Positions 1-54,955 of a DNA stretch of 54,955 nucleotides are shown one piece after another. A program made the translations under genes and the position numbers. The DNA comes from Eledone cirrhosa (taxonomy: Eukaryota). The stretch's first letter is position 1; each line of letters starts with the position of its first letter. Location: NCBI GenBank assembly GCA_964016885.1, contig CAXHJY010000560.1, positions 1 through 54,955 of the forward strand. The letters are read 5' to 3'. Below the pieces are notes generated by a model, which did not search any database, was not told where the DNA came from, and saw only the letters and a program-made list of their open reading frames with translations.

Positions 1-973
1 TATATATATATATATATATATATATATATATATTATATATATATATATAATATATATTATATTATATATATATATATATATATATATGTATATTATATAT
101 ATATATATATATATATATATATATATATATATAAATATGTATATGTATATATATATATATATGTATATATTATATATATATAGTATATATATATGTATAT
201 GTATATATATTATATATATATATATATATATGTATATGTATATATATATATATATATGTATATATATATATATATATATATATATATATATGTATATGTA
301 TATATATATATATATATATGTATATGTATATATATATATATATATATATATGTATTATATATATATATATATATATATATGTATATGTATATATATATAT
401 ATATATATATATATGTATATATATATATATATATATATATATATGTATATGTATATATATATATATATATATAGTATATGTATATGTATATATATATATA
501 TATATATATATATATGTATATGTATATATATATATATATATATATATATATATGTATATGTATATATATATATATATATATATATATGTATATGTATATA
601 TATATATATATATATATATGTATATGTATATATATATATATATATATATATGTATATGTATATATATATATATATATATATATGTATATGTATATATATA
701 TATATGTATATATATATGTATATGTATATATATATATATGTATATATATATATATTATATATATGTATATATATATATTATGTATATATATATTTATATA
801 TATATGTATATGTATATATATATATATGTATATATATATGTATATATATATATATATGTATATGTATATATATATATATGTATATGTATATATATATATA
901 TGTATATGTATATATATATATATATATATGTATATGTATATATATATGTATATATGTATATATATATATATAT
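1..973. repeat. (TA)n microsatellite with TG variant units
   Basis: Directly visible dinucleotide array. Confidence 0.99.
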
Positions 974-1018
974 ACAATTAACAACAAAGAGCGCTTAGAA
1001 CATAGGTATATCTTTAAT

Positions 1019-1064
1019 TGCTAACAGTGTTTCATCCACACTAGAAGTGGGACTCTTCAGAGCA
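1019..1064 (-). ncRNA. Type I minimal hammerhead ribozyme (family A, inverted arm)
   Basis: Reverse complement reads TGCT-CTGAAGA-stem II-GAAAC ACT GTT-AGCA. Confidence 0.75.
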
Positions 1065-1764
1065 TAAAGAGTAAATACATAGTATACAAGCATTGACAAA
1101 GCCAAAACAGAAGAATATATGTGGGGATACCATAAGTTGGGAGGAGTTTAAAGAGTAAAGTAAAAGGAGTAAAATAAGAAAAGAGTAAAATAAAAATAAA
1201 AATAAAAAATGTTATCACTCACAGTTGGGCAGGGTTCCGTTAACATACAGCTACATACAAGTATACGCATAAGCATGAGCACCCGCATGCACCTGCACAC
1301 AAGCACCCGTATGCAACACATACAGTATACACTAATACAAAACGGCACAAGTTAAGAGATAGAGATAGATAAAAAATAGATAAGAGGTAGATAAAAAAAA
1401 AAAAATTTTATCTACCTCTTATCTATTTTTTTATCTATCTCTATCTCTTAACTTGTGCCGTTTTGTATTAGTGTATACTGTATGTGTTGCATACGGGTGC
1501 TTGTGTGTAGGTGCATGCGGGTGCTCATGCTTATGCGTATACTTGTATGTAGCTGTATGTTAACGGAACCCTGCCCAACTGTGAGTGATAACAATTTTTT
1601 TTTTTTTTTTTTTTTTTTTTTATTTTACTCTTTTCTTATTTTACTCTTTTCTTATTTTACTCCTTTTACTTTACTCTTTAAACTCCTCCCAACTTATGTT
1701 ATCCCCACATATATTCTTCTGTTTTGGCTTTGTCAATGCTTGTATACTATGTATTTACTCTTTA

Positions 1765-1810
1765 TGCTCTGAAGAGTCCCACTTCTAGTGTGGACGAAAC
1801 ACTGTTAGCA
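1765..1810 (+). ncRNA. Type I minimal hammerhead ribozyme (family A)
   Basis: TGCT CTGAAGA GTCC-CACT tct AGTG-t-GGAC GAAAC act GTT AGCA: stem I, both core boxes, stem II and a 1-bp stem III. Confidence 0.85.
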
Positions 1811-51334: not shown

Positions 51335-53481
51335 CACTTTCTTAATTCTCCAGTTGGGCTATCTTGTGTAACTGTCTCTTATTGTGTGTAATTGTTTCCT
51401 ATTGTTTGTCTTCTATGTATATGAGTCTGTGTGTGTATATGTATGCCTGCGGGAGAATATTGATCTGGATATTGAGGTGTACAGGTGAGTTGGTGTGTAT
51501 GTTAATAAGCACCCCTGTTTGGCACAGTGGATGTGACCCATCCACGATCGCCTAGCCACCCTTAGTGCATTGGTGGGTCTATCCCAACGTGTACTTTACG
51601 GATCTGTACCTCTGTATGCGCATGAGTTATGATGTAATATATCTATGTAGAGCGTGTGCTGCGATATAGGCTGCACAAATGAAATCTAGCCTGTAACTGT
51701 GGGCGGACCTGTGCCATCTCGCCGTGAGCAGTAGATACGTAGCACATGCACGTGTTACCCTCCTATTCTGTGGTTTAAGATCTACAGGCTGACTTCGGAG
51801 AGCTTTGGCCCGGTGTTGTAGTCTTTCTAGCACAATCGGCCTTCCATATATTGACGGTCGTTGTTATTATCCCAAAAGTAATGTTTTGGCCCCGATAGCC
51901 CTCCGCAGTTATTAACGGTCTGTTTACACTTGAATCGGGCGACTACACGTGCGGACATGCATCTCTTCGTAAGAATTTACTTTGATTAATTTTTGCTGCA
52001 TCTCCTCGTAAGAATTTATCTTGAATGTATTATCTGTGACCAGTGTGAGCGACTGTGGTGGATTCTGCCTTTGTTGGCCTAATGTGATATTTCTGTGTAT
52101 TATATCCGCTTTGATCCGGGTGTCCTACGCTGTGTGTGTGTGCGTGTGTGTCTGTATATACATTTATATGTGTATGGGTGTAGGTGGTTGTATATGTCTA
52201 TCTATAAATATATATATATGTATACCGTCTCTGCATATGCATGTGGTGTGTGTATATGCATATACGTACTAACCATATTGTTGTGTATAATCTTGGGATG
52301 CCTCAATGTTGTGATTTCATGGATATTGGCTTTTGAAGCTATTTTTTATATGCGCTGTTGAGTATGCATATTAACCCGCCTAACCCAACTGTATTTGCTT
52401 GCTTTCGGCTAGCCCACCTGCACTTGCTTGCTTTCGGCCCACTTATCTGCCTCTTGATGTTCATGTTGATGTAAACGATTTTGCTTGCTACCTTGTGACG
52501 TTGTGACACTCAGTTATCTGCCCATGGATGTTCCTGCTGCTGCATGTGAATTTACCTACCTTCCTTGCATACGTCCTTGCTAGTGATGTGGATATACCTC
52601 TGTTGACCAATGGATTCCTGCCCGAGTGTGAACCTTTTGTGATTGCCCCACCGCTCAACTGTGTGAATGCACACCCGTGACTTTCGAGTGTGAACTTCTG
52701 TGACTGCCTAACCCGGATGTCTCCATTGCATTGCAATGGTCAACTCAATCGAGTGTGGACATAGCACCTGTTGATTATAAATCTCATTTGAGCATTTGAT
52801 TGTTGTGATATGGCTAACTGTAACACTTAAGGCGTTCGTGTGCCCCTGATATATTCAAGAATTATATTCAAAACATATATATCTTATCTCACTTTACTTT
52901 ATTTTATTTTATTTCATTGTATTTTATTTTATATAATTTTATTTTATTTTATTCTTTACCCTTTATCTCTATTATCTGTATATTTTATATATATATTTTT
53001 TATATTTTTTATATATATTATTTGTCTATTTTTTATCTATTTTTTATCTATTTTTATCTACTCCTATCTATCTCATCTATTCTTGTCTATTCCTTATCTA
53101 TTCTCTATCTCTTATCCATGGTTAATCTATTTTTTATCTATGGTTAATCTATTTTTATCCTTTGTTTATCTTACTTTTACCCATTGTATTTTTACCCATT
53201 GTATATCCACCATTCATCTCTTAGCTTTTGCATACTCGTCCATGATATGTTATTTGTATTAGTCTATACTATATGTGTTGCATATGGCTGCCTGTTGTGT
53301 GGTTGCATGCGGGTGCTCATGCTTATGCGTATGCTTGTATGTAACTGTATGTTAACAGCACCCTGCCCAACTGTGACTGATAGCACCTCTTATTTTTCAA
53401 TGCTTATTTTTCAATGTTTATTTTTTATTTCTTCAATGTCTTGGATTTGTTATTGCTTGTGTAATATGTAATCACTCTTTA

Positions 53482-53527
53482 TGCTCTGATGAGTCCCACT
53501 TATAGTGTGGACGAAACACTGTTAGCA
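53482..53527 (+). ncRNA. Type I minimal hammerhead ribozyme (family A)
   Basis: TGCT CTGATGA GTCC-CACT tat AGTG-t-GGAC GAAAC act GTT AGCA. Confidence 0.87.
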
Positions 53528-53659
53528 AGTAAAGATATACCTATGCTCTAAGCGTTCTTTGTTGTTAATTATATTACGGCTCTGTCCTCAGACATCGAGC
53601 TAACCTTATACTGCCTATTGGATAAGTGGAGTGTTACACACTCCTAATCCTCTCCCTTA

Positions 53660-54955
53660 TATACTATATGTATATATATATATATATGTATATATATATA
53701 TATATGTATATATATATATATATATATATATATATATATATATATATGTATATATATATATATATATGTATATATATATATATATATATATACACTATAT
53801 ATATATACACTATATATGTATATACATATATATATATATATATATATGTATATATATATATAACTATACACTATATATATATATATGTCTATATATACAC
53901 TATATATATATATGTATATATATACACTATATATATACATATATATATATATAGTGTATATATATATATATAGTATATATATATATATATGTATATATAT
54001 ATATATATATATATATGTATATATATATAGTATATATATATATATATATATATATATATATATATATATATAAATATACTATATATATATATATGTATAT
54101 ATATATATGTATATATATATATATGTATATATATATATATACACTATATATACACTATATATACACTATATATATGTATATATATATATGTATATATATG
54201 TATATATATGTATATATATGTATATATATGTATATATATATATATATACACTATATATACACTATATATATATATATATGTACATATATATATATATATA
54301 AAATATATATGTATATATATATATACACACTATATATATATATATAGTATATATATATATATATATATGTATATATATATATATACACACTATATATATA
54401 TATATATATATATATCTATATATATATACACTATATATATATATATATATATATATATATATATGTATATATATATGTATGTATATATATATGTATATAT
54501 ATATATATGTATATATATATATATATATATACACGATATATACACTATATATATGTATATATATATATATATACTTTATATATACACTATATATATGTAT
54601 ACATATATATGTATATATATATATATACACTATATATGCACTATATATATGTCTATATATATATATATGTATATATATGTATATATATGTATATATATGT
54701 ATATATATATATACACTATATATACACTATATATATATATATATGTATATATATATATATATAAAATATATATGTATATATATATATAGTATATATATAT
54801 ATATGTATATATATATATATATATATATATACACACTATATATATATATATATAGTATATATATATATATGTATATATATATATATATATATATATATAC
54901 ACACTATATATATATATATATATATATAGTATATATATATATAAATATATATATA
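53660..54955. repeat. (TA)n microsatellite with CAC/TG variants
   Basis: Directly visible. Confidence 0.99.

Follow-up and report, generated by a model that had tools for sequence, protein, structure and literature searches.

The contig CAXHJY010000560.1 (assembly GCA_964016885.1), analysed over its full length of 54,955 nucleotides (nt) and referred to below as the window, is probably a long imperfect (TA)n array into which about 14 families of Penelope-like elements (PLEs) inserted by TA-targeted target-primed reverse transcription, and whose length was changed by slippage and tandem duplication, not by the insertions. The cluster is real and is an unusually dense case of known PLE behaviour, TA targeting having already been published for the Hydra clade of PLEs in octopus (PMC8557442). 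By tandem-repeat scanning, segmentation and tallying, we counted 30 external (TA)n tracts with a total of 16,611 nt, or 30.2% of the window, and PLE-like islands of 31,436 nt (57.2%, with their own internal simple repeats counted in). Beyond the PLE islands, a CR1-type long interspersed nuclear element (LINE) accounts for 4,454 nt; the element R, which is non-coding, occurs twice, and three pieces resemble short interspersed nuclear elements (SINEs) (Table 1). Some TA/TG tracts (6406-8384) are internal to the Hydra element at 2811-9405, where they lie in its own 3' untranslated region (UTR), between its two pseudo-long terminal repeats (pLTRs).

The sequence-only reading of this DNA had described nearly every complex island as bounded by (TA)n, and our counts agree: the 20-nt outer flank of 33 of the 34 listed PLE 3' termini was at least 70% in TA register, compared with 27.9% of window positions. 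The 34 termini were placed by eye, which makes the count partly circular and weighs against it; however, 11 short termini re-fixed by arm-to-arm alignment all ran directly into TA. The long termini stopped at the identical base in A1/A2, B1/B2, D1/D2 and L1/L2. Left out of the 34 were the truncated ends meeting at 14619/14620, which are not in TA, and the end of a Hydra open reading frame (ORF) at 46961, which is in TA but has no UTR. The exceptions to TA flanking were this 14619/14620 junction and a SINE-like insert (9006-9190) inside a pLTR.

In self-BLAST, the majority of islands proved to consist of two 3' ends in inverted orientation. The arms are 97-100% identical, so that the insertions are recent; at the rate of 0.0036 per site per million years cited in PMC13282606, a 1% difference between arms would very roughly correspond to 1.4 million years. 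All 11 independent inverted PLE insertions (A1, A2, B2, D1, D2, E3, F, J, K, L and O, from nine families) combine one short end with one tailed end, for which the probability is 0.5^11 = 4.9e-4 if the arms were free. In this count, the three L copies were taken once, and R1, as a non-PLE element, and the G-family terminus at 13441 were excluded. The tails measure 36-166 nt; that of the nearly complete Hydra element corresponds to the leader after the 5' pLTR. At the short ends of eight of the nine families, element and target had at least 3 nt of TA register in common (P ~5e-6, with a null of 9-20% each), the overlap being 3-7 nt, whereas the ninth family, O, matched a variant in the target instead. 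This overlap rule was sensitive to the anchors used, and the following results weigh against it: only six of nine families (P 0.05) were scored with loose, mis-placed anchors, and seven of nine with L1 in place of L3.

The 3' ends of all families thus lie in TA, and the enzymology behind the end pattern, which was seen in 11 of 11 insertions, may be inferred from PLE biochemistry. The GIY-YIG domain would cut both strands of the self-complementary TA run (PMC11167929); one 3' end would prime at a proximal start site, aided by pairing of a few bases, and the other at a distal site; and head-to-head joining of the two 5'-truncated cDNAs would then leave an inverted pair in which a single arm carries the tail. 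Families B, F, J, K, L, M and O, all non-coding, may represent PLE copies that are truncated or non-autonomous and depend on these proteins for their movement, and a retrozyme preprint (10.64898/2026.07.22.740005) may have a bearing on them. As the target would never be consumed, insertions would go on accumulating. The Anolis Poseidon protein PAc is known to cut and extend both strands of AT-rich DNA, with two internal start sites of the reverse transcriptase (RT) defining the tail, and is predicted to form a dimer (Frangieh et al. 2024, PMC11167929). Unlike those of PAc, the start sites in the window show a TA-primer overlap of 3-7 nt and a spacing of 36-166 nt, each site being used once per insertion; for PAc, the RT start is reported not to be homologous to the cut DNA, which also counts against a role for pairing. 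We tentatively extend this scheme to a general rule for PLEs and an undescribed lineage, an extension that is possible but on balance doubtful: each inverted insertion would represent two opposite-strand primings at one TA cut, one for each fixed RT start site, with the proximal site chosen by 3-7 nt of pairing; one resident family would belong to an undescribed lineage with a C-terminal endonuclease (EN) and a telomerase-like fingers insert of about 70 amino acids (aa); and many polarised TA 'reefs' in octopus would act as PLE sinks.

We found that the TA variants were polarised on the plus strand whatever the direction of the elements (ATGTA 552 vs TACAT 71; TACACTA 94 vs TAGTGTA 25), with this polarity in 23 of 27 informative external tracts (P 3e-4), and that a near-identical variant pattern of about 90 nt recurred at 33621 and 54528, 21 kb apart. 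Together, the polarity and the recurring pattern favour one ancestral array, and with many unrelated families ending in TA they bear out the earlier proposal of a shared landing pad. The possibility that the TA tracts were made by RT was rejected, since variant polarity ignores element orientation. Several observations speak against common ancestry. Strand-biased mutation, by replication or transcription, could equally polarise the variants; among 11 tract pairs in a token test, only the two duplication pairs beat all shuffles, with one more at 1/100; and the 33165/53658 pair, by tokens alone, was at 7/100 shuffles, so that descent of the entire array from one ancestor is not demonstrated. Raw scores from aligning the TA tracts with one another carried no information.

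A strand bias of this kind would suit an ordinary octopus repeat landscape, in which separate TA tracts were made or lengthened beside elements, no common ancestral array existed, and the window would seem special only through the abundance of simple sequence repeats (SSRs) in octopus DNA, an explanation that we consider rather unlikely. It would be in keeping with the high SSR count of Octopus, the highest among 719 eukaryote genomes (PMC6387519), and with the cover by transposable elements (TEs), since all TE islands together make up 68.7% of the window, below the floor of 76 kb per 100 kb at which hotspots start in O. vulgaris (mean, 53.8 kb; PMC13282606). However, the curated annotation of the O. 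vulgaris genome assigns 7.45% to simple repeats, 6.83% to PLEs (190 families) and 7.82% to DNA transposons (PMC13282606), compared with which TA is about 4-fold and PLE content about 8-fold higher in the window (the annotation methods differ, as perhaps do the species); merely 645 nt of the window were without assignment to TA or an element; and separate origins would not readily explain a near-identical pattern at such a distance.

The changes in length of this array could be examined in a tandem duplicate of 3.5 kb, in which only 4 of 505 bases distinguish L1 from L2, and the TA flanks of both have variant order in common (scores of 89.5 and 49.9, 0/100 shuffles each). The two units have first TA segments of 2,473 nt and about 1,560 nt, a difference of about 900 nt that arose without any insertion there. 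Element O is present in unit 1 only, providing the sole filled/empty pair in the window: at the empty site, two G variants enclose 15 nt of TA, whereas the filled site has 11 nt plus an overlap of 1-4 nt, and the O insertion therefore added no TA. Both the O site and the divergence between duplicates were observed once. Counting against this conclusion, there is only one such pair, and unit 2 may instead have lost O when the TA on either side of it recombined. In D1, whose arms are 99.2% identical, the internal (CA) repeat of one arm measures 38 nt and the (GT) repeat of the other 84 nt, indicating slippage inside the element. Large changes in length likely come from tandem duplication and slippage.

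The sequence-only reading had proposed that the array grows with each insertion. Such self-reinforcing growth, whether the TA came from duplication of the target, from repeated copying by the telomerase-related RT or from the elements themselves, appears improbable: there was no TA gain at the O site, the polarity of variants tracks the strand of the window and not the orientation of the elements, and the duplicates diverged where no insertion had occurred. Although thus weakened, it has precedents, and the elements do carry simple repeats, as at 6406-8384 and in the arms of D1. Similar to the SSR-linked Penelope and RTE elements of penaeid shrimp, which carry (AT)n (PMC7878876), and MuTAnT of Medicago, for which averages of 15 TA per flank at filled sites and 9 at empty sites are given (PMC4486113), the elements of the window carry or target long (AT)n; unlike those cases, which are genome-wide associations or single families, about 14 families share one array here, and the only site that allowed a comparison had gained no TA. 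A further point in favour of growth is 109 nt of TA between 17-nt inverted repeats (48125-48258), where a Hydra fragment and a Neptune-like fragment meet at their 5' junction; this TA may have lengthened within a foldback there. A weaker form of self-reinforcement is plausible, in which the target is not consumed, elements bring simple repeats and duplication copies both. Elsewhere, local inversions of TA-variant patterns, seen at 9731-10193 and 26330-26812, suggest that the array itself has undergone foldback.

An artefact of assembly or amplification, consisting of foldback chimeras and mis-joins through TA, would produce near-perfect palindromes of the kind that are numerous here, and TA at both ends of the window, but we regard it as highly improbable, since the arms differ by 0-3% and stop at fixed, family-specific sites, with one-sided tails recurring in separate copies; moreover, inverted copies are the published anatomy of PLEs, and the duplicates have ordered variant patterns in common. 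The region 13436-16082 was compared with 4 of 24 listed runs, consisting of collapsed contigs and restriction-site-associated DNA reads, and all four covered it in many divergent pieces. No piece bridging the 14619/14620 junction was present among the reads and contigs listed, and 1561 reads of run X22 ran on into the normal ORF there, which would be compatible with a mis-join; however, reads from reduced-representation libraries and collapsed contigs would not be expected to show a junction that exists at one locus. The 13441 terminus recurred with loose AT-rich flanks in 54 contigs of X17 and 2387 reads of X22, and in X22, 163 molecules ended at 13442, with a depth of 250 beside it; as a point against, the consensus agreement of the loose flanks was low (0.64-0.69). 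In other runs this terminus continued as window 2538, and family G is therefore tied to the insert-bearing lineage with C-terminal EN described below. Runs X1 and X2, from two other organisms, contained long contigs that match both RT fragments of this region (13471-14619 and 14620-16068) at 98-99% identity.

Coding lineages were assigned by homologue searches, by tblastn and hidden Markov models (HMMs) against the masked window, and from a quick tree of 35 unlabelled homologues and five window ORFs. Three deep groups of PLE RTs were obtained (SH-aLRT 99-100), namely Hydra, a Neptune-like group and a C-terminal-EN lineage with an RT insert, in line with the earlier estimate of at least three lineages. 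The five Hydra-type coding copies, at 3509-5940(+), 11245-11670(-), 45163-45429(-), 46975-48127(-) and 49931-51334(+), had mutual identities of 35-48% where compared and count as five families. The single ORF at 3509-5940, with EN C-terminal to RT, contains the motifs RWR, DKT (DKTGN), CxCX5C (CNCRNKANC), CxxC (CRLC) and CxH (CNH), and the CxCX5C linker is also present in the copies at 49931 and 46984. The C-terminal GIY-YIG and the DKT, CxCX5C, CxxC and CxH motifs are like those of the Hydra clade, including Hydra-1_Obim (Craig et al. 2021, PMC8557442); the ORF itself had no Pfam match, and its relative P0003 gave a weak match to GIY-YIG. Its distance of 62 aa between motifs A and B means that it has no insertion in the fingers domain, and its motif B was compared by eye with the published alignment text of the clade (Fig. 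S1).

Other features also resemble the Hydra clade as known from Octopus bimaculoides: the 3' hammerhead (canonical in families A and E), insertion into (TA)n, which is marked for 26 of 27 listed Hydra families, Hydra-1_Obim among them, and inverted 5'-truncated copies with a tail, of 30-40 bp in the clade, at one end (PMC8557442). In contrast to the Hydra elements described in that source, the window ORF has RWR in place of RWK, as do P0003 and P0005; tails are 83-166 nt instead of 30-40 nt; hammerheads are of long-stem-II or variant type; and five families lie within 55 kb, one with a 6.6-kb copy that has a long simple-repeat UTR, compared with less than 3 kb. Families D and N have variant hammerheads, and the copy at 46984 is without a UTR. 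In the 6.6-kb element (2811-9405), the ORF frame is broken near both ends, the 3' UTR is rich in simple repeats, and the pLTRs differ at 3 of 419 compared bases; the element carries the long-stem-II hammerhead of family E. The two Neptune-like fragments, 14620-16068(-), 80% identical to P0148, and 48259-48477(+), are like Neptune in the GTAMG motif B of the RT and its normal A-B spacing of 63 aa. The Neptune clade is marked by a C-terminal EN with a long CX2-5CxxC linker and CCHH; relatives of the window copies have a C-terminal GIY-YIG with a CX4CxxC linker, seen in P0148, whereas the window copies are both truncated and lack the linker, and the tree held no labelled Neptune. Assignment of 48259-48477 to the Poseidon type was rejected, its best match being the Neptune-like set.

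The RT fragment at 13471-14619 had its best protein match, 73% identical, in Octopus vulgaris, which makes an octopus the likely host. The window copy lacks both ends, and the position of EN was read from its relatives (P0072-P0147, 75-76 proteins), in which the EN motif was C-terminal in 47 of 47 scorable cases and N-terminal in none; P0136 had a Pfam GIY-YIG match at 898-949. The median A-B distance in this lineage was 132 aa (52 of 75 relatives measured), compared with 62-63 aa in the other groups, with an insert of about 70 aa between RT3(A) and RT4(B), a short Nematis-type CX4CxxC linker and a DKS motif; the value of 81 for the window's own ORF is a pattern mis-match on an internal motif and not a true spacing. 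As a candidate Naiad, this fragment does resemble Naiads, which prefer (TA)n and have remnants in Octopus, in its RT3(A)-RT4(B) insert. This identity was nevertheless rejected, leaving no Naiad in the window, since the relatives have a C-terminal EN and DKS instead of DKA, the insert is about 70 aa instead of about 20 aa, and the family terminus, G, has a canonical hammerhead. Among the papers listed in literature searches, with subscription papers, Repbase and Dfam outside the search, there was none on a C-terminal-EN PLE clade with a long RT insert or on a multi-family PLE cluster in octopus TA arrays. P0126, annotated as an F-box/LRR isoform of O. vulgaris, starts with 150 aa of RT of this lineage, likely an exonised or mis-annotated copy.

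Hammerhead-like ends were located with a descriptor scan modelled on published PLE hammerheads, a relaxed scan, folding and, in part, inspection by eye. The descriptor scan gave eight matches, compared with a mean of 0.19 in 100 shuffles, and the relaxed scan added family J. In all, 13 families had hammerhead-like ends, of which four (A, E, G and P) were canonical, with a CUGANGA + GAAA core, stems I-III and an NUH site, eight were variant or incomplete and one was half. The core is changed in O, J, K, D, F, L and N, stem I is missing in M, and B is cut in the core. The earlier count of a dozen or more ribozyme-bearing families thus holds if variant and partial cores are included, and fails for canonical cores; we regard these ends as predicted ribozymes. 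Family E folds as a three-way junction whose core is canonical and whose stem II measures 110 nt (z -5.2). A coding link exists for six families (A, D, E and N with Hydra, G with the insert lineage and P with the Neptune-like group), whereas seven are without one, a point against the preferred explanation; the addition of two coding copies without hammerhead ends brings the total to 14-15 families. Rfam at gathering cut-offs gave no hammerhead in the window, its E-value scan was dominated by miRNA models matching TA among the best 150 of 462 matches, and one of four local Rfam scans gave a sub-threshold hammerhead (19.9 vs 48.5 bits), the other three giving none. The published Hydra-1_oBim hammerhead was not seen in the window in a comparison by eye only, and the EN-like end of M, seen by eye, was not recovered by tblastn or HMM. 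In family K, the fold at about 19510-19548(+) has a compensatory U3-A8 core pair. Both B copies are 5'-cut at one same base in the hammerhead core (2154 and 40069), and family B may be a short non-autonomous unit.

Among the non-PLE residents, the CR1 element predicted earlier was recovered: Pfam matched its APE and RT domains, and with an ORF1, an APE-RT ORF2 and a short tandem 3' tail, it was assigned at the level of the CR1/L2/Jockey group. R1 and R2, putative RTE derivatives, have a structured 5' end that matched no Rfam ribozyme family in a local scan. The inserts at 9006-9190 and 9512-9730 are presumably SINEs; ARAGORN returned no genes on the window. The palindrome centre of E3 (35434-35478) falls at the same pLTR site as the insert at 9006-9190. 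Small islands at 33000-33164, 34435-34532 and 34706-35069 lie outside any assignment, the start of that at 34435 resembling the terminus of family N.

Table 1. Elements and TA tracts located in the window (a dot in the strand column denotes no single strand)
Feature	Position	Strand	Remarks
(TA)n tract, first of 30 external	1..974	.	window begins inside tract
A1, inverted pair of family A 3' ends	975..1940	.	canonical hammerheads 1060(-), 1769(+); 83-nt tail, right arm only
B1, short non-coding 3' end	2154..2292	+	cut within hammerhead core
G, inverted 3' end	2478..2810	-	canonical hammerhead 2748; same family terminus as at 13441
Hydra-clade PLE, near full-length	2811..9405	+	pLTR 2811-3216, ORF 3509-5940, pLTR 8792-9405
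SINE-like insert	9006..9190	+	in hammerhead core of 3' pLTR (8792-9405); 18-bp target duplication; outside TA
SINE-like element	9512..9730	-	between TA tracts
D1, inverted Hydra-clade insertion	10196..12807	.	EN fragment 11245-11670(-) and mirror; 166-nt tail, left arm
G-family terminus (55 nt), inverted, joined to RT fragment of C-terminal-EN lineage	13441..14619	+	
Neptune-like RT fragment, 3'-truncated	14620..16081	-	tail-to-tail with element 13441-14619
J, non-coding inverted insertion	17832..19152	.	variant hammerhead 18962; 91-nt tail
K, non-coding inverted insertion	19385..19683	.	hammerhead-like fold, U3-A8 core, ~19515; 60-nt tail
Duplication unit 1	19795..23791	.	L1 (19795-20302), TA tract, O, TA tract
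O, palindromic insertion	22776..23310	.	variant hammerheads 22881(-), 23112(+); 96-nt tail; unit 1 only
Duplication unit 2	23792..26330	.	L2 (23792-24297), TA tract with empty O site ~25850
R1, inverted pair of non-coding element	26813..27739	.	3' end in TA; TA at centre
N2, short family N 3' end	27950..28098	-	small foldback
CR1-type LINE	28338..32791	-	ORF1, APE endonuclease, RT, 8-nt tandem 3' tail adjoining TA
R2, lone R copy	33710..34313	-	96.6% to R1
E3, inverted pair of family E pLTR ends	35095..35665	.	134-nt tail, left arm
F, large non-coding inverted insertion	35817..39836	.	arms 99-100%; degenerate long-stem hammerhead-like fold; 100-nt tail
B2, palindromic insertion	39926..40128	.	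74-nt tail, left arm
SINE-like piece, 5'-cut	40145..40260		after B2
M, GT-rich element	40700..42511	-	hammerhead core and stem II, without stem I
L3, older copy (94%) of L composite	42909..43298	.	
N1, 5'-truncated Hydra-clade element	44211..45439	-	EN 45163-45429; variant hammerhead near 44278
D2, family D	45668..45978	.	279-nt short-terminus arm joined to ~40-nt long terminus
Hydra-clade RT-EN fragment	46962..48133	-	without 3' UTR or hammerhead
P, Neptune-like EN end (48259-48477)	48243..49063	+	canonical hammerhead 48866
A2, 5'-truncated Hydra-clade element, inverted 600-nt arm	49355..53657	+	ORF 49931-51334; canonical hammerheads 49438(-), 53486(+); 83-nt tail
(TA)n tract	53658..54955	.	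window terminates inside tract

The ingredients of this arrangement were already known, and the degree of surprise is therefore moderate; what is new are the end rule with primer overlap, holding in 11 of 11 insertions, the filled/empty pair, and a so far unplaced insert-bearing lineage. The integration of PLEs is poorly understood, and the 11 insertions from nine families predict one short and one tailed end, with TA overlap at the short end, while the filled/empty pair separates targeting from repeat growth. Blocks of TA and PLEs such as this one will break assemblies and repeat annotation, and the Hydra clade in octopus is far more diverse than the one family on record in 2021 would indicate.

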